Assembly: GCA_036261915.1 (NCBI GenBank)
Contig: DATAJX010000006.1
Coordinates: 23,546-87,545 of the forward strand
Source of the DNA: Alphaproteobacteria bacterium
Lineage (GTDB): Bacteria > Pseudomonadota > Alphaproteobacteria > UBA2136 > UBA6156
Reading direction: 5' to 3'
DNA length: 64,000 nucleotides
This document shows, piece after piece, positions 7,851 through 58,985 of this stretch. The notes beneath the pieces were generated by a model. It did not search any database. It was not told the DNA's origin and saw only the letters and a list, made by a program, of their open reading frames with translations. The position numbers were made by a program, and so were the translations under genes. Positions within the stretch are counted from its first letter, which is position 1. Every line of letters starts with the position of its first letter.

Positions 7851-8702
7851 CTAAGCCTGCGTGCGGCTTGCCTGCGTGCTGGCCCCGGCGGCCAGCTCGG
7901 CACCGGTCAGGCTGCCGTTGCCGTCGCTGTCAAGCCGGGCAAACAGGTCGGCCAGGCTTTGCGAATGGTTGCCATAACTGTCCAGCGCCAGCTTCTGCAT
8001 CACCGTATCGGTCACGGTGCCCCACGCCACCACCTTGCCGGTGGCAGCCTCGGTCAACGTAAAGGTCTGGCTTTCGCTAGCCTCAACCCCCACCCCGTCG
8101 CGGCCATCAAGCAAAGCACCAAATTCATCGACACTCAGGCTGCCGCTGCGGTCGCCGTCGGCGCTGTCGGCCATCATCTGCCAGGCGGCGTTCAGGCCCT
8201 TGCCCAAGGCCTTCTGCTCCTGCGTCATGGGGCCGGTCTGCTGGCCGCCGTTGTTGGTGGGCGGGCCTTCATTACCACCCAGCTGCGCAATCGCGGCCTG
8301 AAGGTCCGGCATCAGCACCATCCCGGCAGGCGCACCGGTAATAACGGCGGCCCCACCCTCGCCTTTCTTGGCAGCCTCTACGGCGGCCCGGCTGGCATCC
8401 ATGGCTTCCTGCCACTGGTCAACCACATAGCCTTTCAGCTCATCCAGCGACACCTTTCCGTCGCCATCAACGTCAGCCTTGGCAAACGCGTCGGCGGGCA
8501 TTTTCGCCGCACCGGGCTTCACCGGCATCAGCAAACTCAAGGCCCCGGCGGCGGCGGCAAATTCCTGCTGGTTCAGCTGGCCGTCGCCGTCCTTGTCGGC
8601 GTTCTTGATGATCTTCTCAAGCGCCTCGGTCAGGTTCGAAGGCTTCTTTTCAGTCTGCTGGGTGGGCGGCATCAAGCCGGTGCCGCTAACGCTTCCTACC
8701 AT
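7851..8702 (-). CDS. EF-hand calcium-binding domain protein (paralog 1)
   Basis: Three canonical EF-hand loops: DKDGDGQLNQQEF, DVDGDGKVSLDEL and DSDGNGSLTGAEL. No signal peptide. Confidence 0.75.
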   Translation of the reverse strand: MVGSVSGTGLMPPTQQTEKKPSNLTEALEKIIKNADKDGDGQLNQQEFAAAAGALSLLMPVKPGAAKMPADAFAKADVDGDGKVSLDELKGYVVDQWQEAMDASRAAVEAAKKGEGGAAVITGAPAGMVLMPDLQAAIAQLGGNEGPPTNNGGQQTGPMTQEQKALGKGLNAAWQMMADSADGDRSGSLSVDEFGALLDGRDGVGVEASESQTFTLTEAATGKVVAWGTVTDTVMQKLALDSYGNHSQSLADLFARLDSDGNGSLTGAELAAGASTQASRTQA

Positions 8703-8717
8703 GGCTATACTCTCCTT

Positions 8718-9461
8718 TTAGCCAACCGTAATGCCGCTACCGGCCGTAGCGCTGGCCGTCACGTCGGTGGCATTGGCGGCCTGCAACGCACTGGCAAATT
8801 CGGCTCCGCTGATCGAACCATCGCCGTCGCTGTCCAGCTTGTTGAACAACTGGGCCAACCCGTCGGTGCCATGCTTGCGGTGGTTGCCGTAGCTGCTCAG
8901 CGCGTTACTCAGGCGTACCAGGCTGCCCAGGGGCGCATCGCCATTGCCGCTGATCATGCTGCTGGTGCCGTCGGCGGCCGTGGTGCCGCTCACGGTCACG
9001 CCGTCCATGTGGGCGCCGTCGGTGCCGTAGGTGATGTGAAAAACGCTGACACTCAGCGTACTGCCCGGCGGCAGGCCGTTACCGGCAATTTTCTTATAAA
9101 TGTCGGCGGCCAGTTCGCCATCGCTTTTCTGGTCATAGTGGCCCTGCCCGCCGCTGCTGGCGCTTACTTTGTCGGCAAACAGGTTACCGGCAAACTGCTT
9201 GAACTCGGCCAGCGAGATCTGGCCGTCGCCGTCCTTGTCGATGCTCTTGAACAGGTCGCTGGTGTCGGTGCCGGCGCTGCCGCCACTGGCCTGCCCCATC
9301 AGGTCGCCAAACTCACCGGCATTGATGCTGCCGTTGCCGTCGGTATCGACCTTGGCGAACAACCCCTGCAGAAGCGCGGCCAACCCGCCCGACTGCTTAT
9401 CGACCTGGCTGCCTTGGCCCATTTGGCCGGTTTGGCAGGCCCAGCCCACATTCATACTCAT
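8718..9461 (-). CDS. EF-hand calcium-binding domain protein (paralog 2)
   Basis: EF loops DTDGNGSINAGEF, DKDGDGQISLAEF and DSDGDGSISGAEF. It shares the C-terminal SYGNH...LFxxLDSDGxGS module with the downstream gene, and the 15-bp gap suggests an operon. Confidence 0.75.
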   Translation of the reverse strand: MSMNVGWACQTGQMGQGSQVDKQSGGLAALLQGLFAKVDTDGNGSINAGEFGDLMGQASGGSAGTDTSDLFKSIDKDGDGQISLAEFKQFAGNLFADKVSASSGGQGHYDQKSDGELAADIYKKIAGNGLPPGSTLSVSVFHITYGTDGAHMDGVTVSGTTAADGTSSMISGNGDAPLGSLVRLSNALSSYGNHRKHGTDGLAQLFNKLDSDGDGSISGAEFASALQAANATDVTASATAGSGITVG

Positions 9462-18392: not shown

Positions 18393-19094
18393 ATGAGCCA
18401 AAACGACGAACTGAAAAAAGCCTGGCAAAAGCAGCTGAACGACAACCGCAACGGCGTGTCCGATTTCTGGCGCGCCAATGCCGCCTACTGGCAAACCGTG
18501 TCCGATATCATGAGCGCCCGCGCCGCCACCTTCACCAGCTGGTGGCAAAGCCTGCCGCAACACATGCAGGGCTTTGCGCAGGCCAAAAGCTGGCCCGAGT
18601 TCGCCGAAGCCTTCACCCGCTGGCAGCAAAAAAACTGGCTTAGCACCTGGCACCTGGGGGTCGATACCCAGCAGCAGCGCAATTACCTGTGGGAAGAATG
18701 GCAAAAGCTGGCCCAGCGCAACGGCATGGTTAACCCCTTTGCTCCGGCACCCGAAAAAGAAAAGTCGGTCGCTCCGTCATCGTTCTATGCCGCCAACCCG
18801 CACCTGCAACCGCAGGCGCCCGTGGCCAAGCCCGCCCCGGCCAAGGCGGCAACACAGCCTGCGCCGCAACCGGCCCCCGCCCCCAAGGCGGCCCAACCCG
18901 TTAAGGCCGAACCTATCATCACGGCCGCCGCAACCGCCCCGGTAACAGCCGACCTCAACGGCGAAGCCGTGCAACCGCACCCCGAACCTGCGCGCAACGC
19001 CGCACAGGCTGCCACGCTGGCGGCAGCCACATCGGCCCGGCGCAGCGTGGTGGCCAGCCACCGCAGCCGCGCGGCCCGCCGCACCACGCACTAA
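18393..19094 (+). CDS. Hypothetical Trp-rich protein with an Ala/Pro-rich C-terminal half
   Basis: 233 aa. The N-terminal 110 aa contains 13 Trp residues (WQKQL, YWQTV, WWQSLP, WEEWQKL), followed by a low-complexity AP-rich tail. No family recognised. Confidence 0.5.
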   Translation: MSQNDELKKAWQKQLNDNRNGVSDFWRANAAYWQTVSDIMSARAATFTSWWQSLPQHMQGFAQAKSWPEFAEAFTRWQQKNWLSTWHLGVDTQQQRNYLWEEWQKLAQRNGMVNPFAPAPEKEKSVAPSSFYAANPHLQPQAPVAKPAPAKAATQPAPQPAPAPKAAQPVKAEPIITAAATAPVTADLNGEAVQPHPEPARNAAQAATLAAATSARRSVVASHRSRAARRTTH

Positions 19095-27322: not shown

Positions 27323-27444
27323 AACTCGTAACTTTCCTTTAAATCCTTAAAATCTGCCGGGCTTTTAGCCTAAACCGCCCCCCCGCGCAAGCCCTTTTGC
27401 AGGGGGGCCTTCCCCACCCCCTCGGCCCACGCTATTGTCGGCCC

Positions 27445-27870
27445 ATGAAAAACAATATCGCCCTCCTCACCGCCCCCCTGCTTTTGACCGCCTGCGCCGC
27501 CATGGTCGACACCCACGGCAGCATCATTCAGCAAGGCCAGATTGAAAAAATCACCGAAGGCGTCACCACGCAAGACCAGGTGCGCGAGCTGCTGGGTAGC
27601 CCGGCCACCACCGGCACCCTCAACGAAAACCGCTGGATCTACATCACCAGCACCGTGCGCGACAAACCCCTCGATCCCGGCATTCTCACCCACCGGCAGG
27701 TCGTGGTCATCGATTTCACCCCCTCGGGCACGGTAGCCGCCGTGACGCAAAAAAACGAGAGCGACAGCCGCACGGTCGAACCGCTGCCCAAGGTCACGCC
27801 CACCCACGGCCAGGGCCTGGGGGTCATCGACCAGATGCTCAAGAACATCGGCGTCGACAAGGATAAATAA
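27445..27870 (+). CDS. bamE: Outer membrane protein assembly factor BamE (SmpA/OmlA lipoprotein)
   Basis: Lipobox LLTAC, and the GMTRDQVRELLGSP-like motif (VTTQDQVRELLGSPA). Confidence 0.8.
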   Translation: MKNNIALLTAPLLLTACAAMVDTHGSIIQQGQIEKITEGVTTQDQVRELLGSPATTGTLNENRWIYITSTVRDKPLDPGILTHRQVVVIDFTPSGTVAAVTQKNESDSRTVEPLPKVTPTHGQGLGVIDQMLKNIGVDKDK

Positions 27871-27877
27871 GGCCTAA

Positions 27878-28468
27878 ATGACCCAGCGCGGCGCCCTGTT
27901 CGGCCTCGATGCCCGCATCGCGCTGGCCATTTTCGCCGTTCTGGCGGTGGTGGTGGGCTATCTGGCCTTCGGGCGCATCCAGGTGGCCCGGCAGGCCGCC
28001 CTGCTGGCCCAACTGCAGGATATCGAAAACGCCCTCGCCGCCTATCAAACCGACATGGGCACCTTCTTCCTGTTCACGCTGAATAAAGAGCCGGGCGACA
28101 ACGACAGCACGCTCGATATTACCGCCCTGTGGGATAAAAACATGGTCAAACCAGGCTTCCGGCGGCACTGGAACGGCCCCTACCTGCACCGCACCAGCCG
28201 CGAAATGCCCGGCTACGGCCGTTTAAGCGTGTTTTACGCCACCGGCGACCGCAAAGACTACTGCTCCACCACGTCCGACTGCTTTGTGTGGCTGTCGGTA
28301 TCCAGCACGCCGCAAAAGGCCTGGGTGCAAACCAACCATATCGTCGACGAAGGCAACGGCGCTGAAAACGAGATCGACGGCCAGCAGATCAGCCTCGGGC
28401 GCATCCAGTCCGAAGCCGCCACCGACCCCCGCCCGCTGTATTACCGCACGGTCGAACGCCCCCGCTAA
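27878..28468 (+). CDS. Pseudopilin-like protein A (GspG/EpsG-like body, atypical N-terminus)
   Basis: Conserved N-terminus QRGALFGLDARIALAIFAVLAVVVG, then AL..Y..D.G.F and W.GPYLH motifs reminiscent of T2SS major pseudopilins. Paralog of 34152..34745. Begins 7 bp after bamE. Confidence 0.55.
   Translation: MTQRGALFGLDARIALAIFAVLAVVVGYLAFGRIQVARQAALLAQLQDIENALAAYQTDMGTFFLFTLNKEPGDNDSTLDITALWDKNMVKPGFRRHWNGPYLHRTSREMPGYGRLSVFYATGDRKDYCSTTSDCFVWLSVSSTPQKAWVQTNHIVDEGNGAENEIDGQQISLGRIQSEAATDPRPLYYRTVERPR
27896..27944 (+). repeat. Direct repeat copy 1 (encodes LFGLDARIALAIFAV)
   Basis: ctgttcggcctcgatgcccgcatcgcgctggccattttcgccgtt, about 85-90% identical at the nucleotide level to 34185-34233. 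Confidence 0.7.
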
Positions 28469-28478
28469 GCCGCCATTT

Positions 28479-28506
28479 AAAAAGCCCCCGGCCGGGGGCT
28501 TTTTTA
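28479..28506. terminator. Bidirectional rho-independent terminator
   Basis: aaaagcccccggccgggggcttttttact, lying between two convergent genes. Confidence 0.75.
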
Positions 28507-31500
28507 CTGCGCGGCACGGCTGTACTTGGCGGGCTGGGCCGCAAAGGCGGCATATACATACGTGGCGCCACTGCCGTTATAGTCGCTGTTGGTGTTGCGT
28601 ATCTTGAACCCGTTTGAAACCACATCCAGGTCGGTGGCCGCATTACTGTTACTGGCCGATGTCAGGTTATAAAACACCTCGTTGCCGTCCGGGTTATACA
28701 GGTTGCGCGCGGTATCCAGCACAAACCAGTTGCCGGTGCTGTCGGTGCGCTTGATGATCACAAGCGCGGGTTTGAAACCCAGGTTCACATAAGCGCCGTC
28801 GGCACTACCGTTCCCGGTATAGGTTCCAAATTTGCTGAATCCCGGCACCTCGGCAAAGGCATAAACAACATAAGGCTGGCTGGCCAACACGCCGCCCCCG
28901 GCGGTCAGGCCCACATTGCTCGAGGTATGGCCCGAACCCCACATGGTCGAATACGTGGTCGCCGCCGCGGTGGTGTTCAGCGCCAGGTAGGCCGTGGTGT
29001 TGTTCGCCAGGTTCTGGTGCCACACATACCAGTGCGAAGCCGAACCGCTATACGTCCGGGCGATCACAAACGCCGGTACAACCCCCATGCCGTGCGCCGC
29101 GGTAAAAGCCCCCGATCCTGGCGCCGTACCGGTCAATATGTCCATGCCGGGCGTAACGCCCTTCTTAAACATGTGCGCCACATAAATGTTGCCGCTGGTG
29201 TTAAAGGCGCTGGCGCTGCCTACCGCAAAACCGTTGTTGTAAAAGGTTGCCAGCGATTGCGCATCGATGGTCTGCACCGCCGTGCCCGTGCTGTCCAGGT
29301 ACTTGGCGGGCCCGCGCGCACTGTCAAACCAGCCCCATGCGCCGGTGCTGGTATTATCCTTCAGCATCACCAGGTCGGGCTGGTAAGGGGTGTAGGTGGT
29401 CAGCGGCGTGTAGGTGATAACAATAAGCCCAGGGGCGCCCACACCCGCCGTGCTGCTGTTCGAACTACCGCCGCCGCCGCCGCCGTACAGGCCACCATTA
29501 CCCGCCGAATAACCGCTGCTGCCGCCCTGTTGCGAGCCGCCGCCGCCGCCCGAACCGTGCAGCGGGTCAAACTCCTGCCCGTTGCCACCGTTACCGCCCC
29601 TGCTGGCGCCGGCAGGATTGCCGCCGCCGCCGCCGCCGCCGCCCGATGACCCGAACAGCGAATAACCGTACCCGCCATGGGTATTGTTCACCGCCACGAT
29701 CCCACCGGTGCCGTTGACCAGCCCGCTGGCATTGGCCCCGCGCCCGCCAACGCCGCTGGTGGTGTTATTAGAGGGTCCCAATTGACCGGCTTCACCGCCG
29801 CCGCCGCCGCCGCCGCCCGGGCCGCGGTAGTTCACACCCGCGTTCGAGCCACCGGCCCCGCCATTGCCATAAGGTCCGGCCGCACCGCCGCCGCCGCCGC
29901 CCGCCTGGGTGCCGGTGGCGGGGCTCTGCCCGTTGCCACCGGCGCCGCCCGAATACTTGGTGGTACCGGTACCCGAGCCCGAAGCCCCGCCAGCCCCACC
30001 CGTGCCACCGCTGCCGCCGCTGCCGCCCTTGGCCCCCACGCTCGAAGCCGCCACGCTGGTGCCGTTGAACCACGTATCGCCGCCGGCGGTGCTGGCCGCA
30101 CCACCGCTCCCCACCTGGGTCTGCACGGTGGTGGTGGGCACCAGCGCCAGGTTCGATATCTTCGAGTACCCGCCGCCGCCGCCGCCGCCGTTGACCGAAG
30201 ACCCCGACGACGCCCCACCGCCGCCACCGATCACTTCAATGGTGTTGCTGGTGCTGTTCCAATCCAGCGGCACGCGCCACGAAGTCCCCCCGGTCAAAAA
30301 TATCTGCTTGGTCGTCGGCACGGTGGGCACATAGGTGATCACCACGATCCCCGGCGCCCCATTCCCCGGGTTTCCCTGGTTGGTGCTGGTATAACCGGCA
30401 CCGCCGCCGCCGCCGCCATACAGGCCGCCGTCACCACCACGGTAAATACTGCTTTCGCCGCCGCCGCCGCCGCCGCCCGCACCTGCACCACCCCACTCAA
30501 TGCCGTCGCCCCCCTTGCTCCCCAAACCGTGGGCACTGCTCACGCCGCCGCCGCCGCCTGCGCCAAAGGCCCCGGCGGTCGAATCCACACTGGCCGTCGC
30601 CGCACCGCCGCCGCCGCCGCCAAAGCGGTTAGCACCACCGGCACCGCCGGTGGTGCTCGTACCGTTACCTCCAACCGAACCGCCATTAGCTCCACCGCCA
30701 CCACCCGAACCTGCACTACCGGCCGAACTCATATCGCCACCATTGGCGCCATTACCGTTGGGCCCGGCGGCGCCACCGCCACCGGGGCCGCTCACATAGC
30801 CCGAGCCACCACCCGAATTCCCGCCGCTATACGCATAAGGCGCACCGGGGTTGGTGGTGCCGCCACCCGCACCGCCGCGCGCGCTCGAAGCCGCCCCGCC
30901 GGTCCCGCCGCTGCCGCTGGTGCCGCCGGTGCCGCCCTTGGCACCCACGCTCGCCACCGCCAGCGAAGCCCCGTTGAACCACGTATCGCCACCGGCACTC
31001 CCCGCCCCGCTGGTGGCCGGGGTGGCGGCCACACCGCCCATGCCCACATTGTAGCTGATGCTTGCCCCAATGGTCAGCGTCACACTGGTGGCCTTGGCAT
31101 AGCCGCCGCCGCCGCCGCTCCCGGCATAGGTGGTGCCGCCACCGGCCCCAAAACCGCCGCCGCCGCCAGCCCCGATCACTTCAATGGTGTTATCGCCGCT
31201 CCAGTCACTGGGCACGGTCCAGGTGGTGCCGCTGGTCAAAAACACCGTCTTGGTGGGCAACGGCCCAGGCAAGGTAACAACCTGGGTACCGCCCGTGCCG
31301 CGGTACAGCACCGGCTGGAAGTAAAGCGAAGGGCTCACCACCGCAGGTGTCGCCGTGTTGTAGGTGTTCAGCGCCGCAAACCCCGCCGGGGGGGTGGCAG
31401 CAAAAGCTCTCTGACCAAAGTTGAACGAGGCCGTTTGGGTGGAACCTTGGTTATTGCCTATGGCCGCCACCCAAGCCAGCCCCGCCGTAGCAGTGGCCGC

Positions 31501-32928
31501 CGGGCTGGTGCCGGTGGCAGGGTTCGAACTCCCCAGCCACGTCCCGTTCTTCGAGAAATAAAGCTTACCCGTGTCGGCGTCAAAGGCCACGCCAACCACA
31601 TCGTTAATGGCAATCGTCACACCATAGCTGGTAATGGCCGAACCGTTATTATACACTTGCCCCGCACTGTTTATCCCATAGCCATAAGTATTATTGTAGC
31701 CGGGGTAATAGCTCGCGGGCATGTTCTGCTGCTGGATACCCGCCGTCCCCACCAAACTGCCGGTCCATACAAACTCCCAGTACCATTTGCCACTCGTCAT
31801 CAACTGGTTGGCCTTCACAACGCTGTTGGTGGCAAACGGCACCGAAACGTCCATATTCGCCGCCGACAAGGTCGAGCCGGTCGGGTCCAGAAAATTGAAT
31901 GCAGGGTCATTCCCGCGCCCATTGTCGCCGTTGTCGGCCAACGTGGGGTGGTCTTCGGTAGGGTCATAGGTCACGCCGGTGGTCACGCTAAAGTTATTGG
32001 GCGTCCAGTTGTTGCCCTTACCGCTCACGTCCTTGCCCAGCGTGGTGGCGGTGTTGTTCAGGTAATTTTCAAAATCAAGATGGAATCCGTTGGTGCCATA
32101 AGCGCCGGTATAGGTTTTCGGCACCCACATGCCGTTGCTGTCAATCTCGGCAAAAGCGCTGGGGTCCAGGGCCAGGCCGTCCACAAAATTGATGTCGGCC
32201 ATCACGCCGTCAAAATACTGGGTGGAAGAACCCGCCGTGTTCAGGTAAGCGCCGATCCCGTTATAGCCGGACCGGTTGAAGTACGAAGTGGTGCTGTTCG
32301 CCACCGAGCCCGAACCGATCACCTGGCGCTGGCCGTTAACGTATATCCGCACGTTATCGGCGGTGGTGCCGTTGGCGGTGTCCCATACAAACACAATGTG
32401 GTACCAGGCCGTGGGGTCGCGGTACACGCCCGCGCTGGTGGCGGCATTGGCTGAGTTGGCATAAAAGATCAGCTGGTCGCTCGTATTGAAATCAACCTCG
32501 GTCGTCTGCCCCGACCCCACGATCTGGCTGAACAGGGTCTGCGTGGTTCCCATCTTCCCGCGCTTGACCCACATGCTCATGGTCCAGGTGGTCAGGTTCC
32601 CGTTGCCGGCGGGTGAGCGGCTCAGGTACGCCGAACTCGCGCTCCTGAACCGCAACGCCCCGCCGCTGCACTTGCCGTTGGTAACACCCGGAATGGTACT
32701 CGAAAGGAACGAACCCGCCGAGTTCTTCCACTCATAGCTATACTTCGTGGGCACCATCAGGCTCTTGCCGCTGGCATGGTTATTGGCGATCAGGCGGCAA
32801 CTGCCGAACTCATTGATGCCAAGCCCCTCGCCGTTCGGAATGGTGTAACTCACGTTGGTCTGCGCCATGGCATTGCCGCCCAGCAGCAACCCCAGCAGCA
32901 TCAGCAAAAACAACATCGCCCGGCGCAT
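28504..32928 (-). CDS. Giant secreted multidomain fibre-like protein (LamG-like + SPRY-like + 2x glycine-rich domain + duplicated C-terminal domain)
   Basis: 1474 aa with a signal peptide (AMA|QTN).
- aa ~100-240: LamG/ConA-like pattern (W.H..FVWD...VRIYVNG).
- aa ~380-500: SPRY-like pattern (KWYWEFVW...GDVVGVAFDADTGKLYFSKNG).
- aa 562-866 and 876-1173: two copies of a W.VP...IEVIG-GGGGG...APG(I/L)(V/I)VITY glycine-rich domain.
- C-terminal domain carrying a twice-repeated KP.LV.IK...STG.W..D.AR motif. Confidence 0.8.
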   Translation of the reverse strand: MRRAMLFLLMLLGLLLGGNAMAQTNVSYTIPNGEGLGINEFGSCRLIANNHASGKSLMVPTKYSYEWKNSAGSFLSSTIPGVTNGKCSGGALRFRSASSAYLSRSPAGNGNLTTWTMSMWVKRGKMGTTQTLFSQIVGSGQTTEVDFNTSDQLIFYANSANAATSAGVYRDPTAWYHIVFVWDTANGTTADNVRIYVNGQRQVIGSGSVANSTTSYFNRSGYNGIGAYLNTAGSSTQYFDGVMADINFVDGLALDPSAFAEIDSNGMWVPKTYTGAYGTNGFHLDFENYLNNTATTLGKDVSGKGNNWTPNNFSVTTGVTYDPTEDHPTLADNGDNGRGNDPAFNFLDPTGSTLSAANMDVSVPFATNSVVKANQLMTSGKWYWEFVWTGSLVGTAGIQQQNMPASYYPGYNNTYGYGINSAGQVYNNGSAITSYGVTIAINDVVGVAFDADTGKLYFSKNGTWLGSSNPATGTSPAATATAGLAWVAAIGNNQGSTQTASFNFGQRAFAATPPAGFAALNTYNTATPAVVSPSLYFQPVLYRGTGGTQVVTLPGPLPTKTVFLTSGTTWTVPSDWSGDNTIEVIGAGGGGGFGAGGGTTYAGSGGGGGYAKATSVTLTIGASISYNVGMGGVAATPATSGAGSAGGDTWFNGASLAVASVGAKGGTGGTSGSGGTGGAASSARGGAGGGTTNPGAPYAYSGGNSGGGSGYVSGPGGGGAAGPNGNGANGGDMSSAGSAGSGGGGGANGGSVGGNGTSTTGGAGGANRFGGGGGGAATASVDSTAGAFGAGGGGGVSSAHGLGSKGGDGIEWGGAGAGGGGGGGESSIYRGGDGGLYGGGGGGAGYTSTNQGNPGNGAPGIVVITYVPTVPTTKQIFLTGGTSWRVPLDWNSTSNTIEVIGGGGGASSGSSVNGGGGGGGYSKISNLALVPTTTVQTQVGSGGAASTAGGDTWFNGTSVAASSVGAKGGSGGSGGTGGAGGASGSGTGTTKYSGGAGGNGQSPATGTQAGGGGGGAAGPYGNGGAGGSNAGVNYRGPGGGGGGGGEAGQLGPSNNTTSGVGGRGANASGLVNGTGGIVAVNNTHGGYGYSLFGSSGGGGGGGGNPAGASRGGNGGNGQEFDPLHGSGGGGGSQQGGSSGYSAGNGGLYGGGGGGSSNSSTAGVGAPGLIVITYTPLTTYTPYQPDLVMLKDNTSTGAWGWFDSARGPAKYLDSTGTAVQTIDAQSLATFYNNGFAVGSASAFNTSGNIYVAHMFKKGVTPGMDILTGTAPGSGAFTAAHGMGVVPAFVIARTYSGSASHWYVWHQNLANNTTAYLALNTTAAATTYSTMWGSGHTSSNVGLTAGGGVLASQPYVVYAFAEVPGFSKFGTYTGNGSADGAYVNLGFKPALVIIKRTDSTGNWFVLDTARNLYNPDGNEVFYNLTSASNSNAATDLDVVSNGFKIRNTNSDYNGSGATYVYAAFAAQPAKYSRAAQ

Positions 32929-32932
32929 GGGC

Positions 32933-33952
32933 TCAGCGCCCTGCTTGCTTGGCCCGCAGTTCGTCCACTTCGCGGCGCAGGTCGTCGATTTGTTTTTGTT
33001 GGATCTTCACAGCCTCGATCAACGGCGCGATCAGCTGGTCGCTGTCCACCACCATGGTGGTGCTGCCGCCGCCGTGCACAGCCTCGGGCATCACCTTCTG
33101 TACATCCTGTGCGATCACCCCGTACGAGGGTCGGCCGTCCTTCTTCCAGGTAAAGTGCACGCCGTTCAGGCTTTTCACCAATCCCATGGCGTCGGCCACC
33201 GGCACAATATTGTCTTTCAATCGGCGGTCCGAACTGTGCAAATAGGCAACCGCCGTCATATTGCCGCTGGCGCTCACGTCACCGGCCACCTCAAGCTTGC
33301 TGGCCGGCGAGGTTACACCCAAACCCACATTCCCGGCGCTCGTAATCCCCAGGCGCGCACCCTGCCACGCACCGGCAATATAATTGCCCACCATATACAT
33401 CCCGCTGCTGTCATAACCGGTGGCCCACAACGGCGTGGTGTTGCTGGTAAAACGTATGTAGTTCCAGCTACCGGTGCCCGACCGCGACAATGTCATGGTA
33501 TTATCAAGGCCCGACAGCACATAAAGCGGCACCGTCGTGGTGGCGGCAGCCCCAATCCCCACATTACCGCTCGAATAAAACCCGGTGGCCGAAACCACAC
33601 CAGTGGCACTCACCCCCGGTCCCACAAAGCCCAACGTAGGGTGAATGTAAGCAGCCCCCGCCGTACCCGCCAATGTAAAGCTCACAGTGCCCCTGTCGGC
33701 CACCACCATGCCCAGGTTGGCGCCGCTGGAAACGTTGGTGGTGCTGATGCGGTCACCCGCGCCCCCACCGTTGGTGAACACAATGCCGTTCACCGCCAGG
33801 TTGGTGGTCGATACGTACAAAAAGTGCCCATACGTCCCGCTCACCACCCCGGCCACGCTGGTACTTACCAGCGGCGCATTGTTCATCTGCGCCATCACGC
33901 CGCCCGGCAGCAGTAGGGCGCAAACAAGCAAAAGCAGGCGTAATGTTTTCAT
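32933..33952 (-). CDS. Secreted phage-tail-fibre-like protein with a C-terminal S74 intramolecular chaperone autoprocessing domain
   Basis: Signal peptide (VMA|QMNN). Tail-fibre repeats (GNVGIG...TT, GNVGLGVTSPASKLEVAGDV). The C-terminus YLHSSDRRLKDNIVPV...GLVKSLNGVHFTWK...LIAPLIEAVKIQQKQIDDLRREVDELR matches the Ser-Lys dyad chaperone-of-endosialidase domain. Lies 4 nt downstream-adjacent to the giant gene. Confidence 0.8.
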   Translation of the reverse strand: MKTLRLLLLVCALLLPGGVMAQMNNAPLVSTSVAGVVSGTYGHFLYVSTTNLAVNGIVFTNGGGAGDRISTTNVSSGANLGMVVADRGTVSFTLAGTAGAAYIHPTLGFVGPGVSATGVVSATGFYSSGNVGIGAAATTTVPLYVLSGLDNTMTLSRSGTGSWNYIRFTSNTTPLWATGYDSSGMYMVGNYIAGAWQGARLGITSAGNVGLGVTSPASKLEVAGDVSASGNMTAVAYLHSSDRRLKDNIVPVADAMGLVKSLNGVHFTWKKDGRPSYGVIAQDVQKVMPEAVHGGGSTTMVVDSDQLIAPLIEAVKIQQKQIDDLRREVDELRAKQAGR

Positions 33953-34151
33953 CTTCTTGAACCCACATTAACGGCTCATCTTTTCCGCGCAACGCCCGAG
34001 TAAGCAAAACGCCGACATTTCCGCCCAAAAAATGAGCCAAACCTCATTAAAAAAACAACACTTTACAACAGTAAAACAACAGCCACGCATCACCTCCGCA
34101 TCATTTGCGCACGCCCCTTGCGCCCCCGCCCCTGCCTGCTAGCATGTTGGC

Positions 34152-34745
34152 ATGAAGCATATTTTACAGTCACAACAAGGCGCCATGTTCGGGCTCGACG
34201 CCCGTATCGCGCTGGCGATTTTCGCCGTGATTTCCGTGGTGGCGGGCACCGCCATCGCCATCAGCATGGATAGCACCCGCGCCAAGGCCCTGGCGCAGGA
34301 AATGTCCGACACCGGCAAGGCCATCGAATCCATCAGCTACGACATGCGCGCCGATCTTTACCCGTCCCTCATCCAACCCTCGCCCAAAAACGCCTACACG
34401 GCGCTGTTCGACGTCAGCGTCATCAAAGACGAAAACAACTTGCGCGGCAAATGGTTAGGCCCCTACGTTCATGCAACAAGTACAAGCTCCCGCTACGGCG
34501 AAATGATGATCGAGGCCCGCAAGGCCTCCCATGCCGACGCCTGCATGGAAGGCGAGCCCTGCTTCCTCTGGCTCACCTACGCCAACGTCAAACGGGCGAT
34601 TGCGCTCGAGGTCAACAGCATCATCGACGGCGACAAAGAAACCGACCCGGCCAAAACCGGCCGCATCCAGTGGGTCGAGAACGCCGACGGCACAACGCTC
34701 AGCCTGCAGGCCGCCAAAACGCTCACTTATACCGGGAACAACTAG
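34152..34745 (+). CDS. Pseudopilin-like protein B (paralog of 27878..28468)
   Basis: QQGAMFGLDARIALAIFAVISVVAG N-terminus. Contains AIESISYDMRADLYP and KWLGPYVHATS, and shares the C.FLWL motif with A. Its stop codon overlaps the nusB stop. Confidence 0.55.
   Translation: MKHILQSQQGAMFGLDARIALAIFAVISVVAGTAIAISMDSTRAKALAQEMSDTGKAIESISYDMRADLYPSLIQPSPKNAYTALFDVSVIKDENNLRGKWLGPYVHATSTSSRYGEMMIEARKASHADACMEGEPCFLWLTYANVKRAIALEVNSIIDGDKETDPAKTGRIQWVENADGTTLSLQAAKTLTYTGNN
34185..34233 (+). repeat. Direct repeat copy 2 (encodes MFGLDARIALAIFAV)
   Basis: atgttcgggctcgacgcccgtatcgcgctggcgattttcgccgtg. Confidence 0.7.
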
Positions 34746-35236
34746 GCTTTCACAAAAAATTCGCCCCGCACCGCGCGGGCGATCTTATCCAGCGTGGCGT
34801 TCACAAACGCCACTTCTTCGGGGCTGGCCACAAAGCCTTTGGCAATGTTCACAAACTCGTTGATGACCACGGGCGGCGTCACATCGGCACGGGCAAACAG
34901 CTCGGCGGTGGCAGCCCACAGCAGGGCGTAGTGCACCGCATCCAGCCTGTCCATCGGCCATTCTTCCAGCAGGTTGGCACCAATCAGGGCGGCGTGGCGC
35001 TCGGCGCCGCGGGCGGCTTCGGCGGTAATGGCGTCAAACATCTTCTTGTCGGCCTTGCGACGCTTCAGGCGCGCACCGGCAAATTCGGCGGCCACATCGG
35101 CCACGTCCTGCCCACGCGCCTTGGCCTGGAACAACGCCTGCACCGCGCAAATGCGCGCCTCGGTGCGGCTGTCCTTCACCAACGGAGAATTTTCGAGGGG
35201 GAACGCGTCTTCCCCGGCTTCCCAGGCCTTAACCAT
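34742..35236 (-). CDS. nusB: Transcription antitermination factor NusB
   Basis: ARICAVQALFQ...helical NusB fold motifs. 164 aa. Confidence 0.9.
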   Translation of the reverse strand: MVKAWEAGEDAFPLENSPLVKDSRTEARICAVQALFQAKARGQDVADVAAEFAGARLKRRKADKKMFDAITAEAARGAERHAALIGANLLEEWPMDRLDAVHYALLWAATAELFARADVTPPVVINEFVNIAKGFVASPEEVAFVNATLDKIARAVRGEFFVKA

Positions 35237-37097: not shown

Positions 37098-37661
37098 TTA
37101 AACCAGCGTATCGATCGCCTTGGGGGCTTCGGGCGCCGGCACCGCCGTAACGGTGGAAGTGCGCGAGGTCACCGGCCGAACCACCGCCGTACCCGCCTGC
37201 TCAATGGCCGGGCCCACCACCTTGGCGGCGGTGGCGCTGGCCAGGGCAATGCTCAGGCTGGTGCCCCGGCTTTGCTGGGCAATGGCATTCAGGTTCTGCT
37301 GCACTTGCGCGGCCACGGCGGCCTCGGTCTGGGTGCTTTGGCCCGAAAGGTTAAGCCCATAAGCGCGCAACGCGGTCATCAAGGGCCAGCGGGGGAAGCC
37401 GTTGGTGTCACTGTTCCTGAAATACATGCCTAGGCCTTTCACCTGGCTGAAAAGGTTTTCGCGCACGCTGGCGGTCTGCACACCGGCATCCACCTGCGCC
37501 ACGGCAGCGCTCAGGGTGGTGATTTCTTCAACACTCAAGCCGCCCGATTGGGAAATTTCGCTCAACACTTGCATGGCATCGCTGGCAGGGGCAACTTGTA
37601 ACGCAGCGGCCGGGCTATACAAGCCCGCCTGAACCGCACTCAAGTTCGTTACGTCTACCAT
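37098..37661 (-). CDS. Hypothetical protein (Ala/Ser/Thr/Gln-rich)
   Basis: 187 aa, no recognised domain. An AT-rich promoter region lies upstream. Confidence 0.4.
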   Translation of the reverse strand: MVDVTNLSAVQAGLYSPAAALQVAPASDAMQVLSEISQSGGLSVEEITTLSAAVAQVDAGVQTASVRENLFSQVKGLGMYFRNSDTNGFPRWPLMTALRAYGLNLSGQSTQTEAAVAAQVQQNLNAIAQQSRGTSLSIALASATAAKVVGPAIEQAGTAVVRPVTSRTSTVTAVPAPEAPKAIDTLV

Positions 37662-47099: not shown

Positions 47100-49362
47100 G
47101 CGTTCCCCCTTTAACTTTCAATTTCTTCTCTTTTTTCCTGCCGGTGGCGGCCGCGCCTGCAACCAAAAAGGCTGCGGGCACAATCTGCGGCAAACTCAAT
47201 TCCACCGCGGCGCCACCTTCCGGCCTCCGTCGCAGGCGGGCCTGGCCATCGTGTTCGTCCATCACGCGCCTCACCATCGCCAGCCCCAGGCCGGTCCCCC
47301 CTTTGCGTGTCGTCACATAGGGGTCGAACAGGTGTTCCTCCTCAACCTCGGGGGGCAAGCCCTTGCCGTTGTCGAGAACCGTGACCGACACCTTATCAGA
47401 TTGTGTCTTTTTAACAACAACCTCAATGCGGCCTTTTGGCAACGAAGTGCCTGTTCTTTCCTCAATCGCGTGCGTGGCGTTCTCCAAAAGGTTCACCAGA
47501 ACGCGGTTCACGAATTGCCCACGGTCGGCCACCACATTGTCTTCGCCCGGCTTCAGCTGGTTGGTCACCACAAATTCGATGCTCGAGGCCTTGGGCCGTT
47601 GCACCGCCACCGCCTCTTCCACGATCTCGATCAGGCTCTCGTCCTTTTTAATCGCCCCGGGCAGGCGGGCAAATTCGCTGAACTCATTGGTCATGCGCCG
47701 CATGTCTTCGGCCTGGTTGATGATGGTGGTGGTCAGCTCCTTGTACAGCTTCTGGTCGGCCTCGGGGATATGCGTAAAGTACTTCCGCTGCAACCGCTCG
47801 GCACTCAGCTTGATGGGCGTCAGCGGGTTTTTAATTTCATGCGCCAACCGCCGCGCCACGTCGCGCCATGCCGCCAAACGCTGCGCCCCGATCAACGGTG
47901 TGATGTCGTCAAACGTCAGCACCACGCCACCCACCTTGCCGCCTTCCACATATTGCGGCACCAGCCGAACCTGCAGCATGCGGCTGCCACCGCCCGGCAC
48001 ATCCACCTTCAGCTCATGCTCTTCCAACCCGCGGGGGAATTTCACCGTATTGGCCGCCAACTCGCCCAGCGGCGGCACAGCCTTGTCCAGCACCAGCCCC
48101 TTCTTCAACCCCAGCATGCGCTCGGCACCGGCATTGGCCAGCACCACCAGCCCACGCTCATCCACGCGCAGCACTCCGGCGGTCACCCCGGTCAGCACGG
48201 CCTCCATCTGGCGGCGGCGCTCATCCAGCTCGTGGTTCTTGCGCTCCAGCAGGTCGCGGTTGTGCAGCAACTGCTGCGCCATGCGGTTAAAGGCCTGCGT
48301 CAGCACACCCAATTCGTCGTCAAAACGCGGCGTCAGGCGCACGTCATATTCACCGGCGCTCACCTGGTTGGTAGCCTGCACCAGCGCCGTCACCGGCTGC
48401 ACAATGCGGTTGGCCAAACGCAACCCGGTCCAGCTGGCACCGGCCAAACCGCCTAAGCCCAGCATCACCAAAAACAGCGTGGCCAGCAGGCGTATCTTGT
48501 CGCGCTCCTCCCGCAGCTTGAAGTACTCCTGGTACGCGGCATTGGTCTGGTCCACCCGGGCCAGCACGGCGGGGTTCACGGTCTGCTGTCCCACCAGCCA
48601 CAGGTCGCCGCGCACCGGCACCAGCGCCACGATCTGCCCGGCGCGGTTGGCCTTCATCACAAACGGGCTGGGCAAGGGCGAATCCATCGCCGCAACCGCC
48701 TCGGGCGGCAAATTCACGCTGCCAAAGCCGCCGCCGGTGGCCATCTGGCGGCCATTGCTGTCCAGCACCGCCAGCATGTCCAGGTTCTTCGCCGCCGCCT
48801 GCTCGGCCAGCCAGCGACGCAGGCTCAACGGGTCCAGCATCAGCGGGTCGCGCCATACTGTATCGCGGCCCATGCCCTGCACTTCCAGCAGCAGACCGTG
48901 CTCGTGCTCATCAAGGTAGGCCTGCGCCGCCTCAAGGCTGCCTTCCAGCGCCCCGGTCACCTTGCCGCTAAACCAGCTTTCAACGCCCTGGTTCAGCAGG
49001 TAGATCGCCATCAACGTCACGCAGGCGGCAGGCACAATGGCCAAAAAGCTGAAGATCGCCAGCAACCGAATGTGCAAACGCCCCCCGGCCAGCCGCCCGC
49101 GGCGGTCCAAAAACATCACCAATACCTTGCGGCCGATGTACAAAACCAAAAAGGTCAGGATGATGACGTTCACGTTGATCAACGCCAGGTAAGCAGGCCC
49201 CGAAAGCTCGGGCTGCAAAACCCCGGCCAGCAAAATGCCCACCACGCCCAAAAGGCCCAGTATGGCGGCGCCAAAAGCCCCGGTTTTCAGCCAGCGGTAG
49301 GCATGGCTGGTGTGCCCCTTGGGCCGCCGCCGTTCCTGCATCCCCGCCATCAATTCAGTCAT
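47059..49362 (-). CDS. ntrY: Sensor histidine kinase NtrY
   Basis: TM segments, HAMP, PAS, HisKA (HEIKNPLTPI) and HATPase. Overlaps ntrX by 41 nt. Confidence 0.9.
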   Translation of the reverse strand: MTELMAGMQERRRPKGHTSHAYRWLKTGAFGAAILGLLGVVGILLAGVLQPELSGPAYLALINVNVIILTFLVLYIGRKVLVMFLDRRGRLAGGRLHIRLLAIFSFLAIVPAACVTLMAIYLLNQGVESWFSGKVTGALEGSLEAAQAYLDEHEHGLLLEVQGMGRDTVWRDPLMLDPLSLRRWLAEQAAAKNLDMLAVLDSNGRQMATGGGFGSVNLPPEAVAAMDSPLPSPFVMKANRAGQIVALVPVRGDLWLVGQQTVNPAVLARVDQTNAAYQEYFKLREERDKIRLLATLFLVMLGLGGLAGASWTGLRLANRIVQPVTALVQATNQVSAGEYDVRLTPRFDDELGVLTQAFNRMAQQLLHNRDLLERKNHELDERRRQMEAVLTGVTAGVLRVDERGLVVLANAGAERMLGLKKGLVLDKAVPPLGELAANTVKFPRGLEEHELKVDVPGGGSRMLQVRLVPQYVEGGKVGGVVLTFDDITPLIGAQRLAAWRDVARRLAHEIKNPLTPIKLSAERLQRKYFTHIPEADQKLYKELTTTIINQAEDMRRMTNEFSEFARLPGAIKKDESLIEIVEEAVAVQRPKASSIEFVVTNQLKPGEDNVVADRGQFVNRVLVNLLENATHAIEERTGTSLPKGRIEVVVKKTQSDKVSVTVLDNGKGLPPEVEEEHLFDPYVTTRKGGTGLGLAMVRRVMDEHDGQARLRRRPEGGAAVELSLPQIVPAAFLVAGAAATGRKKEKKLKVKGGTHGKSGKSRYSGRR

Positions 49363-49477
49363 CGCACCAGCTATACCCCAAGGGGCCGGGTGTCGTCACC
49401 CAAACTGCTTTTCAAACAAGCCACCGTGTCGTATACAACACCATCTGTTTCCTCGCTTTTCGCAAAGGTTCATCCCC

Positions 49478-50119
49478 ATGGAATACCTCACCGCACCCCC
49501 AACCCAAAAACTGCTGCCGCCCCGCTGCACCATCGCCCTGTTCGACGTCGAGGCCAACAACGCCAACGCCGAAAAGCTCGCCGTCGCCGGCAGCGCGGTG
49601 GCGGTGGGCGGCGCGGCATTCCTGTGGCCCGAGGCCACGCCCACGCCCACGGTGCTGCGGCGCAGTACGTTCTACCGCGCCATCACACCCAAGCTGCAAA
49701 GCAATCAAATGGCGCAGGAGTTCTTCCAAAAGCACCCGCACGCGCTGGCGGCCACAAGGCTCGAACCCACCGAACCGTTCTTCGCCGGGGTGTCGTTCCT
49801 TCACTGGCTGGGCCACCTGCTGCGCAACTTCAACCGGCCGCTGGTGCTCATGTCGGCGCCGCACAGCTACGACGGCGCCCACCTCAACCACCTGCTGCCG
49901 CGCAACGAATACCTCGCGCTGCAACTGCAAAGCCGTACGGCGGTGGGCCAGCAACCGGTCTGGCACGATGTGGCCGAAACCATCGCGGCCCACAAAAACC
50001 TCACGCAGGCCGAAGCCAGCCGGCAGTACCACGCACACCTGCCGCCGCTGCCGCACATCGCCGATGTCGACAGCCTGCTGCAAGGCTTCGCCACCATGAA
50101 GGCGCTCACGGCCCCGTAA
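49478..50119 (+). CDS. Hypothetical protein with weak DEDD-exonuclease-like motifs
   Basis: Contains IALFDVEANNANAEK and ...YHAHLPPLPHIADVDSLLQGF. The RBS is poor and the start is uncertain. Confidence 0.35.
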   Translation: MEYLTAPPTQKLLPPRCTIALFDVEANNANAEKLAVAGSAVAVGGAAFLWPEATPTPTVLRRSTFYRAITPKLQSNQMAQEFFQKHPHALAATRLEPTEPFFAGVSFLHWLGHLLRNFNRPLVLMSAPHSYDGAHLNHLLPRNEYLALQLQSRTAVGQQPVWHDVAETIAAHKNLTQAEASRQYHAHLPPLPHIADVDSLLQGFATMKALTAP

Positions 50120-50225
50120 TAAAAGGCCCCGCACGCGGGGCCTTTTTTATTTGCCATGTCAAAGGCTTAGGTATATACGGCCCGCAGTAACCACCGCGTT
50201 ATCTTCCTTTTTAACGGAGGCCGCC

Positions 50226-50504
50226 ATGGCCGTCATCAAATTCCACGACGTCGTCACTCCCACCGACTGGACCGCCGAACAGCAGGCCTTCGTCCGCAAC
50301 CTGCTGGCGGCCCGCGATCACAACCCCACCTACCGGCAAACACTCACGCTCAACCTCATCGGCCGCATGGTCGCAAAAACCCCGGGGCAAATGAACCGCT
50401 TCAACACCGAAGCCGGCTTCGCCATCCCCTACGGCCCGCGCAAAAAGAAGCGCGCCAAACACAAGCCCTCGCGCAAAAGCAAAACCAAGATCAGGCGCAA
50501 ATAA
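50226..50504 (+). CDS. Hypothetical protein with a highly basic C-terminal tail
   Basis: A GGAGG Shine-Dalgarno sequence lies upstream. MAVIKFHDVVTPTDW...PRKKKRAKHKPSRKSKTKIRRK. A terminator hairpin (ggcgcccgcc...ggtgggcgcc plus a T-run) follows. Confidence 0.45.
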   Translation: MAVIKFHDVVTPTDWTAEQQAFVRNLLAARDHNPTYRQTLTLNLIGRMVAKTPGQMNRFNTEAGFAIPYGPRKKKRAKHKPSRKSKTKIRRK

Positions 50505-58979: not shown

Positions 58980-58985
58980 CCGGGC

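Follow-up and report, generated by a model that had tools for sequence, protein, structure and literature searches.

A putative secreted fibre module related to podovirus tail fibres, inserted into a conserved pilin-like gene pair of an uncultured alphaproteobacterium

Secreted S74 fibres encoded outside prophages

The closest described system to the locus analysed here is the S74 subgroup of the mosaic adhesive trimer (MAT) family, the secreted cellular S74 fibres of Bdellovibrio bacteriovorus (Caulton et al. 2024, PMC10769870). MAT fibres are surface-located adhesins with a signal peptide and an S74 C-terminus, and the signal peptide is followed by a conserved, beta-rich N-terminal domain of ~130 aa that has no PDB homologue; one of the fibres, Bd3442, has a SPRY tip (PMC10769870). 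The same authors list MAT-like members from Micavibrio (Alphaproteobacteria) and also from non-predators, associate S74 chaperones typically with trimeric fibres and spikes, and raise a possible interplay between the fibres and type IV pili (PMC10769870). S74 domains with the Ser-Lys dyad of Pfam Peptidase_S74 also occur in phage K1F endosialidase, T5 pb1 and eukaryotic MyRF.

The window, i.e., the whole 64-kb stretch of DNA analysed, encodes an S74 protein of 339 aa between bamE and nusB. Like the MAT fibres, this protein is cell encoded outside a prophage, has an N-terminal signal peptide, a tail-fibre-related fibre region and a C-terminal S74 domain with an SDxxxK motif, and shows mosaic domain swapping. 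MAT proteins, in contrast, have about 1,000 aa and form a 21-member family in Bdellovibrio, whereas a single module is seen at this locus of an uncultured alphaproteobacterium; the lectin domains, which lie at the fibre tip in MAT, are here carried by a separate, translationally coupled partner (LamG-SPRY-Gly_rich_2-DUF7483). The analogy with the fibre adhesins of predatory bacteria, drawn in an earlier sequence-only reading of this DNA, is apt, and the S74 protein matches chain 8ond of Bdellovibrio Bd2133 in the PDB (E 4.7e-4). The same reading held that no system of this composition had been described; secreted cellular S74 fibres have been, as MAT, whereas their pairing with a secreted LamG-SPRY-DUF7483 protein is indeed undescribed.

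The ORFs and their order are as that reading gave them. bamE (27397..27870, + strand; Pfam BamE, E 2.4e-14), which keeps its place upstream of the pilin-like pair across relatives, is followed by pilin-like gene A (27878..28468, +; 196 aa), the gene of a 1,474-aa giant protein (28504..32928, -), the S74 gene (32933..33952, -), pilin-like gene B (34152..34745, +; 197 aa), and nusB (34742..35236, -; TIGR01951, E 1e-28). Only 4 nt separate the S74 gene from the ATG of the giant gene. Between pilin-like gene A and the 3' end of the giant gene lies a bidirectional hairpin terminator (AAAAAGCCCCCGG/CCGGGGGCTTTTTT; 28474..28509), an inverted repeat with 18-nt arms that are 89% complementary. On the other side, a divergent, A+T-richer intergenic region of 199 bp (33953..34151) presumably holds the promoters of both the fibre operon (-) and the now-orphaned pilin-like gene B (+); no consensus sigma-70 site was found within these 199 bp. 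We propose, with a probability of roughly 0.6, that the locus consists of two unrelated parts, a conserved pilin pair and an inserted, secreted adhesion module derived from podovirus tail fibres.

Domain architecture of the two predicted exported proteins

Both fibre proteins are predicted to carry Sec-type signal peptides, as had been claimed, with a basic n-region, a hydrophobic core (12-mer Kyte-Doolittle values of 2.9 in the S74 protein and 3.05 in the giant), and small residues at -3 and -1. Read by eye along the protein, these are MKTLRLLLLVCALLLPGGVMA followed by Q in the S74 protein (aa 1-21) and MRRAMLFLLMLLGLLLGGNAMA followed by Q in the giant (aa 1-22, cleavage between AMA and Q; 32863..32928, -).

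The fibre region of the S74 protein (aa 22-240) contains GNVGIG-type repeats, and the protein matches 33 PHROG families, the majority with a tail-fibre or baseplate annotation. Judged solely by family membership, this region would form a trimeric beta-helix; in the AF2 monomer its pLDDT is <50, with residues 22-120 of low confidence, compared to a pLDDT of about 95 over the S74 domain. The intramolecular chaperone/autoprotease domain (aa 241-339; 32936..33232, -) is recognised by Pfam Peptidase_S74 at aa 241-293 (E 5.6e-17), and its SDxxxK motif, S241-D-R-R-L-K246, provides the Ser241 and Lys246 pair; S241, D242, and K246 are almost invariant across 43 homologues. The best Foldseek match of this domain is the MyRF ICA domain (7dc3, E 2.7e-6); two phage chaperones, 3GUD and 3GW6, come next, with nonsignificant E-values (0.05 and 0.07). 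Unlike the S74 domains of K1F, T5 pb1, and MyRF, the one encoded here belongs to a predicted Sec-exported bacterial protein. The window protein may be a truncated or decaying copy, because the small Cys-containing N-terminal domain ("W..ATVSPT..L..CY.DG.DI.C") of its orthologues at two other loci (L083 and L174, see below) is missing.

The giant starts, after the signal peptide, with an N-terminal domain (aa 23-90; 32659..32862, -) that is missing in the phage homologues and common to P0171 and P0352; the only two cysteines of the protein, C44 and C87, both lie within it. There follow a Laminin_G_3/concanavalin-A-like lectin domain (about aa 91-290; 32059..32658, -; Pfam PF13385, E 1.7e-15), a SPRY domain (about aa 350-522; 31363..31881, -; Pfam E 2.4e-7) with PDB sequence matches to the SPRY domains of DDX1 and RyR, two tandem Gly_rich_2 copies (aa ~560-868 and ~874-1175; 29404..31251, -; Pfam PF21722, E 1e-5), and a C-terminal DUF7483 domain (aa 1180-1466; 28531..29391, -; Pfam E 1e-69). 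The Gly_rich_2 copies are further supported by an internal DNA duplication with 909-nt spacing and by glycine composition. Counted in 50%-identity clusters, 20,220 cluster representatives match DUF7483 at E<=0.001; a literature search for this domain found no papers, and one on SPRY, tail fiber, and pelagiphage found nothing functional. Two patterns of the N-terminal domain, HASGKS[LI]M and VPTKY[SQN]YE, retrieved no further members from JGI metagenome contigs, and no PLSDB plasmid was matched by P0171 in tblastn.

By analogy with MAT, the fibre pair probably makes a surface adhesion fibre. The S74 protein would be exported through Sec, trimerise with the aid of its C-terminal intramolecular chaperone, and cleave itself at Ser241, so that a short fibre of about 219 residues remains as the mature form. 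The giant, also exported, would present its lectin-type Laminin_G and SPRY domains plus the two Gly_rich_2 copies and would probably dock to the fibre or the cell envelope via DUF7483 and/or the new, disulfide-capable N-terminal domain. The resulting complex could be displayed at the cell surface or released as a glycan-binding fibre, a repurposed phage receptor-binding-like apparatus that, analogously to MAT, may serve in adhesion between cells, to a substrate or, more speculatively, to a host or prey.

The two proteins could also be released as glycan-binding or glycan-degrading exoproteins, or as a lectin-type, bacteriocin-like factor, with no surface fibre. Such a role would suit the membership of Laminin_G_3 in the concanavalin-A-like lectin/glucanase superfamily, the outcome of our domain searches, which recognised no anchoring domain, and the position of the closest S74 homologues on plasmid, ICE, or integrative elements with defence and toxin-antitoxin cargo. 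The same searches found no catalytic domain, however, S74 chaperones are typical of trimeric fibres and spikes, and the conserved tight pairing of the S74 and DUF7483 genes suggests a complex; we consider this alternative unlikely.

Podovirus relatives and recurrence at nonphage loci

The giant matches phrog_19943, annotated as a virion structural protein, at 9e-148, and it also matches phrog_24898 (tail fiber) and tail-module proteins of pelagiphages, cyanophages, roseophages, and phage MEP301. Its homologues number >2,600 and are typically proteins of ~790 aa with LamG, SPRY, and DUF7483, encoded on contigs of 30-60 kb. The podovirus proteins (phrog_19943/phrog_24898, pelagiphage HTVC011P-type, cyanophage SS120-1, roseophage CRP-811, and gp16 of Methylophilales phage MEP301) share this domain order with the giant, at 29-37% identity by tblastn and, for two phage proteins, 34-40% by BLASTP. 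In MEP301, the SPRY protein gp16 and an S74-bearing gp21 belong to one tail module. The podovirus proteins differ from the giant in lacking the signal peptide, the two-Cys N-terminal domain, and the double Gly_rich_2 insertion; alignments of viral homologues start at giant residue ~65-91, indicating that they have neither the signal peptide nor the N-terminal domain, and an N-terminal hydrophobic segment is present in only 1 of the 120 closest homologues of the N-terminal part.

While the podovirus proteins are encoded amid capsid, tail, and lysis genes, the window has none of these. Forty ORFs of the window that lie outside the insert were scanned with Pfam, as were bamE and nusB, and the window was scanned for tRNAs; no capsid, terminase, portal, sheath, tube, baseplate, or integrase gene and no tRNA gene turned up across the 64 kb. 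The other window genes scanned are housekeeping genes or have no family match. The earlier claims of two minus-strand tail-fibre derivatives in a cellular context, and of a window without phage structural, integrase, or lysis genes, therefore hold. So does that of a host-like G+C content, which extends to GC3: values in the insert are 0.74-0.76, compared to 0.74-0.87 for most neighbouring genes, with a few short neighbouring ORFs down to 0.63-0.69. A prophage, a tailocin, or a tRNA-linked island was rejected on the lack of phage genes and tRNAs and the size of the insert, just 5.7 kb between conserved neighbours.

Orthologues of the fibre pair recur at other nonphage loci, where an S74 gene and a DUF7483 gene, separated by 3-4 nt, each encode a protein with a signal peptide. 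At one of them (L083), an S74 fibre of 1,481 aa with a signal peptide is encoded 3 nt upstream of a DUF7483 protein that likewise has a signal peptide and shares the N-terminal domain of the giant; on its contig, this pair is surrounded by plasmid-type and recombinase genes, which code for resolvases, ParA, RPA, and toxin-antitoxin systems, and no pilin lies nearby. The other (L174) comes from MAG RI_491, as does L006, and is an operon of four genes whose products have signal peptides. One product is an S74 fibre that shares 72% identity with that of the window across the C-terminal 110 aa, another is a DUF7483 protein with 45-50% identity to the giant, and the S74/DUF7483 gene junctions share 75.6% DNA identity. 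These comparisons indicate that the fibre pair is a real recurrent, mosaic, and relocating module in an uncultured alphaproteobacterial lineage. In host-lineage taxonomy, the names UBA12223 and MarineProteo1 correspond to the GTDB order UBA1280.

Alternatively, the pair could be two leftover tail-fibre genes of a decayed prophage or tailocin, with no present cellular function. The strong phage tail-fibre homology of both proteins is compatible with decay, as are the presence of the exact window pair in one genome only (P0044 has 1 member) and the length of the S74 protein, 339 aa versus 908 and 1,481 aa in its orthologues. Yet both ORFs are intact, one of them over 4.4 kb, both proteins have gained signal peptides and the giant a new N-terminal domain absent from the phage homologues, and signal-peptide pairs are found at the two other nonphage loci. 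Given also the host-like codon GC3 and 64 kb with no other phage gene, integrase, or tRNA, a mere remnant appears quite improbable.

If the adhesion module that we favour is real, the use of phage receptor-binding proteins as bacterial adhesins would reach beyond Bdellovibrio-type predators, uncultured Alphaproteobacteria would possess a mobile, mosaic, multigene adhesin module, and DUF7483, a very large family (>20,000 50%-identity clusters), would have its first cellular context. Such fibre modules could influence how cells recognise one another and aggregate, which hosts or prey are within their range, and perhaps how susceptible they are to phages. More tentatively, the pair could represent an undescribed, virion-less, multicomponent receptor-binding complex built from podovirus fibres, with optional Gly_rich_2 copies and extra fibre genes, which moves between chromosomal sites and MGE-rich contigs and sets the cells or glycans to which the bacterium adheres. 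In that case, the single-protein MAT concept would widen to a complex of two to four proteins in a different phylum. A still bolder extension would make display of the fibre complex dependent on the atypical FGLDAR pilin-fold proteins of this lineage.

Insertion into a conserved pilin-like gene pair

In 17 of the 18 species representatives with a bamE locus, bamE, A, and B are directly adjacent without fibre genes, and A and B are spaced by <=130 bp. These 17 include L004, the closest relative at 73% aa identity; in the 18th representative (L014), the locus is rearranged, with A and B apart and no notable cargo. In the 17, as in L003 and L169, where the three genes are also contiguous, no fibre genes occur within ±10 kb, and L169 has ~20 kb of gene order in common with the window, the fibres missing. 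A tblastn search with both fibre proteins of 934 kb around 78 pilin-like loci gave no match. In RI_491, bamE-A-B-nusB is uninterrupted and the orthologous fibre module occupies an unrelated chromosomal site on another contig.

The ancestral arrangement is a lineage-conserved tandem pair of pilin-fold genes immediately downstream of bamE, and in the window a 5.7-kb insertion on the opposite strand (28469..34151) splits A from B. The insertion holds both fibre genes, a tightly coupled operon for two proteins with predicted Sec export, together with the region upstream of them. Both insert junctions were recovered in independent Logan assemblies of run SRR12773038, showing that the locus is not a MAG chimera. 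The insert ends have no target-site duplication, direct repeats, terminal inverted repeats, or mobility genes, and a transposon-like insertion was dropped from consideration.

The sequence-only reading had described the fibres as bracketed by, and plausibly functionally tied to, the pseudopilins, and had held that conservation of the pilin-like genes in fibre-less relatives would make the adjacency coincidental. Such conservation is what the 17 representatives exhibit, and A/B did not co-occur with S74/DUF7483 genes at any of the 78 pilin-like loci, the fibre module lying elsewhere in RI_491 and in L083. Synteny indicates that the fibres came to lie beside the pilin genes by chance insertion, at a landing site rather than in a functional partnership.

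Folded periplasmic proteins are known to be exported by type II secretion. A four-gene system, with A and B assembling, anchoring, or secreting the fibres as a T2SS-like pseudopilus or a fibre-displaying pilus, would accord with that export route, with the physical adjacency in the window genome, the true pilin fold of A and B, the fibre-pilus interplay raised for MAT, and the GspG-reminiscent N-termini of some S74 homologues (P0052, P0053, and P0060, see below). The synteny of the representatives and further metagenome contigs and the separate RI_491 and L083 fibre loci speak strongly against it, however, the fibre genes lie on the opposite strand and are parted from A by a bidirectional terminator, and we regard such a system as very improbable. 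The fibres may nevertheless use the ubiquitous pilin-like proteins once present. The bracketing is an insertion artefact revealed by comparative synteny, and adjacency alone does not make a system without such a check.

By eye, P0052, P0053, and P0060 combine an N-terminal transmembrane helix with a "DPWQNRYGY" segment reminiscent of GspG. Their interpretation as pilin-S74 fusions akin to A and B was rejected at an hhalign probability of 0.2% against the A/B family, and phmmer against the PDB was negative for pilin-likeness, P0060 included.

The flanking genes themselves do encode genuine pilin-fold proteins with an atypical N-terminus, as the earlier reading supposed. A and B are paralogues (33% identity, E 1e-26) in which an N-terminal hydrophobic alpha-1 helix packs on an antiparallel beta-sheet. 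Neither matches Pfam N_methyl, and T2SSG and GspG matches fall under the cut-off. No GspE/PilB ATPase, platform protein, secretin, or prepilin peptidase gene is present in the 64-kb window, nor are filament machinery genes within ±10 kb in the relatives L001-L003 and L167-L169; in contrast to pilin systems, the conserved partner gene is bamE. Canonical pilins carry a class III signal peptide with an N-methylation motif (G↓F/M-x-x-x-E), which is missing in A and B; these instead read ...Q(R/Q)GA(L/M)FGLDARIALAIF, with no Glu at +5 and an invariant motif, (L/M)FGLDAR(I/L)A, in which F8, G9, D11, A12, and R13 do not vary. Their closest known relatives are type IV pilins and T2SS major pseudopilins (PilA1, CofA, TcpA, PilS, and EpsG/PulG), which they resemble in a Cys pair and, for GspG, in a conserved W-x-G-P-Y that recalls the "PWGNPY" motif.

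Gene content and synteny of the bamE-nusB locus

ORF calling confirmed the coordinates of the four ORFs that the sequence-only reading had placed between bamE (positions 27397-27870, plus strand; Pfam BamE) and nusB (34742-35236, minus strand; Pfam NusB). Two pilin-like genes on the plus strand, A (27878-28468; 196 aa) and B (34152-34745; 197 aa), flank two fibre genes on the minus strand, encoding a 1474-aa protein (28504-32928; referred to as the giant) and a 339-aa protein with a peptidase S74 domain (32933-33952; the S74 protein). The S74 protein ORF ends 4 nt before the ATG of the giant, and a bidirectional terminator hairpin lies between A and the 3' end of the giant gene.

A binning or assembly chimera is excluded for this arrangement, since Logan assemblies from the same read set reproduce both insert junctions. 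A prophage is likewise rejected as an explanation of the fibre genes, and the earlier claim of a nonprophage locus is supported by the gene content of the window. Gene calling over its entire length gave 58 ORFs, and a Pfam scan of bamE, nusB, and 40 further ORFs beyond the insert found no phage gene. All ORFs with Pfam matches are housekeeping genes (DsbD, YhdP, peptide-chain release factor, PBP1a, amidase, ABC permeases, RNase E, M48 protease, AccB/AccC, MurA, a PAS-GGDEF-EAL protein, HflX, NtrX/NtrY, TopA, PyrH, Tsf, RpsB, MnmA, and AnmK), and the remaining scanned ORFs have no Pfam family match. FabH, IHF, MerR, NrdR, and GlyA were assigned from ORF translations and the Pfam-annotated syntenic genes of relatives. 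There are no tRNA genes or Rfam families in the 64-kb window. The G+C content of the insert resembles that of the host as claimed, except in the Gly-codon-rich centre of the giant.

The two fibres had also been proposed to be assembled or anchored by A and B as a four-gene system. The synteny of relatives contradicts this proposal, since they keep A and B beside bamE and nusB without the fibres, an outcome that the sequence-only reading had itself set as refuting. Scanning GTDB with the A/B alignment gave 78 loci, 934 kb in total. The order fabH ... bamE-A-B is found in 17 of the 18 species representatives having the bamE locus, followed in several by nusB in the opposite orientation, with an A-B gap of ≤130 bp and no fibre-like gene within ±10 kb of bamE-A-B in any of the 17. 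These include L004, which is the closest relative (73% identity); in the 18th representative (L014), a rearrangement separates A from B. Another locus, L169, agrees with the window in every gene over ~20 kb save the fibres, and neither fibre protein had a tblastn hit at an E value of ≤0.01 anywhere in the 934 kb of pilin-like loci. Because the A-B pair is intact and fibre-free beside bamE/nusB in relatives, the fibre genes represent a 5.7-kb insertion (28469-34151) that split an ancestral A-B operon. The insert showed neither a target-site duplication nor terminal repeats, and a mobility gene was likewise not found. Of the overall interpretation, a nonprophage, secreted, phage-derived fibre stands, and a system built with pseudopilins does not.

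The short A-B spacer of L004 (L004:10580-10660), the same junction that the insertion interrupts in the window genome, contains a repeated inverted motif (AGGTGTTAGG.../...CCTAACACCT). Elsewhere in the window, tandem paralogues of 283 and 247 aa (7851-8702 and 8718-9461, minus strand) each have multiple EF-hand calcium-binding motifs, and an EF-hand protein is also encoded near the bamE locus in the relative L003. Several Pfam-negative ORFs look conserved (GC3 of 0.75 to 0.90), at 37098-37661 (minus) and at 18393-19094, 49310-50504, and 58668-59387 (plus). One of them, the 187-aa ORF lying between glyA and murA, was likewise predicted on the Logan contig, and L169 has a counterpart at the equivalent position.

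The pilin-like family

A and B are paralogues with 33% identity, and the motif (L/M)FGLDAR(I/L)A at their N termini is invariant. A confident AF2 model built from a 25-sequence alignment (pLDDT of 87.8) combines a single N-terminal helix of 53 residues with a sheet of four strands, and Foldseek gave no significant match. The label "atypical pseudopilin" is fair for both proteins: the pilin fold is present, the canonical G|FxxxE leader is absent, and no filament machinery is seen near their genes. A tandem pair of this FGLDAR pilin-fold family directly 3' of bamE is conserved across the uncultured alphaproteobacterial lineage. The family is greatly expanded in MAG MarineProteo1_Bin2 (PTJW01; ≥26 loci) and in UBA12223 (DMEM01; GTDB order UBA1280; ≥27 loci), where the copies often form tandem arrays of 2 to 4 genes with ~600-nt spacing, again with no filament machinery seen nearby.

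The two fibre proteins and their phage kinship

The giant contains SPRY and DUF7483 (E value of 1e-69) domains, and piecewise Pfam scanning additionally detected Laminin_G_3 (1.7e-15) and Gly_rich_2 (1e-5), the latter in two tandem copies as judged from the DNA duplication D7 and composition. Its N-terminal (LamG and SPRY) and C-terminal (DUF7483) parts resemble podovirus virion/tail-fibre proteins, with PHROG matches to phrog_19943 (9e-148) and phrog_24898 ("tail fiber"). Homologues detected by tblastn in pelagiphages, cyanophages, roseophages, and the Methylophilales phage MEP301 are always inside the tail module. Databases hold >2,600 homologues of the giant, typically of ~790 aa and on contigs of 30 to 60 kb, and DUF7483 alone matches 20,220 cluster representatives. 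The viral homologues begin at residue ~65 to 91 of the giant, without the signal peptide and the ensuing ~68-residue domain, which contains the only two cysteines of the protein; the double Gly_rich_2 insertion (~600 residues) is also missing from them.

The S74 protein (Peptidase_S74, E value of 5.6e-17) matches 33 PHROG families, mostly annotated as tail fibre or baseplate. Its catalytic motif is S241-D-R-R-L-K246, and 43 homologues retain the S, D, and K almost without exception. The S74 domain is modelled with a pLDDT of ~95 and superposes on the MyRF ICA domain (2.7e-6), and the phage intramolecular chaperones 3GUD and 3GW6 gave nonsignificant E values (0.05 and 0.07). The fibre part is of low confidence when modelled as a monomer, as would be expected of an obligate trimer. 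The classical Sec signal peptides noted on both fibre proteins are borne out by their sequences, ending in ...GGVMA|Q and ...GNAMA|Q, with hydrophobic 12-mers scoring 2.9 and 3.05.

Recurrence of the fibre pair and related secreted proteins

At three independent loci (the window, L083/L084, and L174), only 3 to 4 nt separate an S74 fibre gene from a following gene for a DUF7483 protein with a signal peptide, and the DUF7483 partners all have the same N-domain, HASGKS(L/I)MVPTKY. At L083/L084, the S74 protein has 1481 aa (Gp34_trimer and S74; 61% identity in the C-terminal 119 aa), its partner has 844 aa, and the pair is embedded among resolvase, ParA, RPA, toxin-antitoxin, and Fic genes. L174 (contig WGMN01000001.1) belongs to the MAG RI_491, in which bamE-A-B-nusB (L006) is uninterrupted. 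Its four-gene operon (L174:1390-13969), next to lipid-metabolism and ABC-transporter genes, encodes only signal-peptide proteins: a 1428-aa fibre, a 467-aa protein with three Cys-repeats and Gly_rich_2 (its gene uncalled in the source annotation), a 908-aa S74 fibre (72% identity in the C-terminal 110 aa), and a LamG-SPRY-LamG-DUF7483 protein of 1322 aa. Its S74/DUF7483 junction has 75.6% DNA identity to that of the window. Recurrence of the pair in different contexts indicates that the module is orthologous across genomes yet located at differing sites. Its domains are shuffled between loci, Gly_rich_2 being a free-standing gene in RI_491 and fused into the giant in the window.

Two observations suggest that the S74 protein and its DUF7483 partner form a complex: their genes are closely coupled at all three loci, and in MEP301 a single tail module contains both an S74 protein (gp21) and the SPRY protein (gp16). 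Both proteins would be exported by Sec; S74-assisted trimerisation and subsequent self-cleavage at Ser241 would yield a short, ~219-residue fibre, and the giant would supply Laminin_G and SPRY domains of the lectin type.

The closest described system is Bdellovibrio's superfamily of mosaic adhesive trimers (MAT), with 21 signal-peptide fibres, 13 of them ending in S74 with SDxxxK; these fibres are surface-located and glycan-binding, one carries SPRY at its tip, and the listed MAT-like members include some from Micavibrio (Alphaproteobacteria) and nonpredators (PMC10769870). The window S74 protein matches Bd2133 in PDB and shares the signal peptide and S74 domain. It differs in its very short fibre, in the separate lectin partner carrying DUF7483 and Gly_rich_2, and in the organisation of the module as multiple genes. 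The main interest lies in a recurrent multicomponent, putatively "virion-less receptor-binding" module and in a first cellular context for DUF7483.

Signal peptides are present in 29/120 of the nearest other S74 homologues, which sit on non-phage mobile elements where the context is visible. Secreted homologues are cargo of a Rep_1/FtsK/resolvase/Abi/restriction-modification island (L171) and a relaxase/ArdC/ParB/integrase element (L172); those on mobile elements (L171, L172, and L083) might conceivably act in cell-cell or conjugative contact. Many secreted S74/giant proteins on (alpha)proteobacterial metagenome contigs have a Cys module, C..P.G..G...YN......Q(Y/F)C(D/N)G..W, directly after the signal peptide, sometimes in three repeats (P0045, P0046, P0048, P0054, P0058, P0152, L170:11328-16697, and L174:5733-7136). 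The L083 and L174 fibres have a different small domain there, W..ATVSPT..L....CY.DG.DI.C, and the window 339-aa protein has neither. By eye, the S74 proteins P0060 (L170:10001-11323), P0052, and P0053 have a pseudopilin-like N terminus with a short leader, a hydrophobic helix (SQSGNIFFTMFGAVALVGAVG), and then the GspG-motif-like DPWQNRYGY...ISAGPD. For P0060, neither hhalign against the A/B family nor a sequence search of PDB gave a match, and a pilin-S74 fusion in the three proteins remains conjectural. The P0060 gene follows secB, and 4 nt further on is the gene for a 1479-aa secreted RCC1/BNR-propeller protein.
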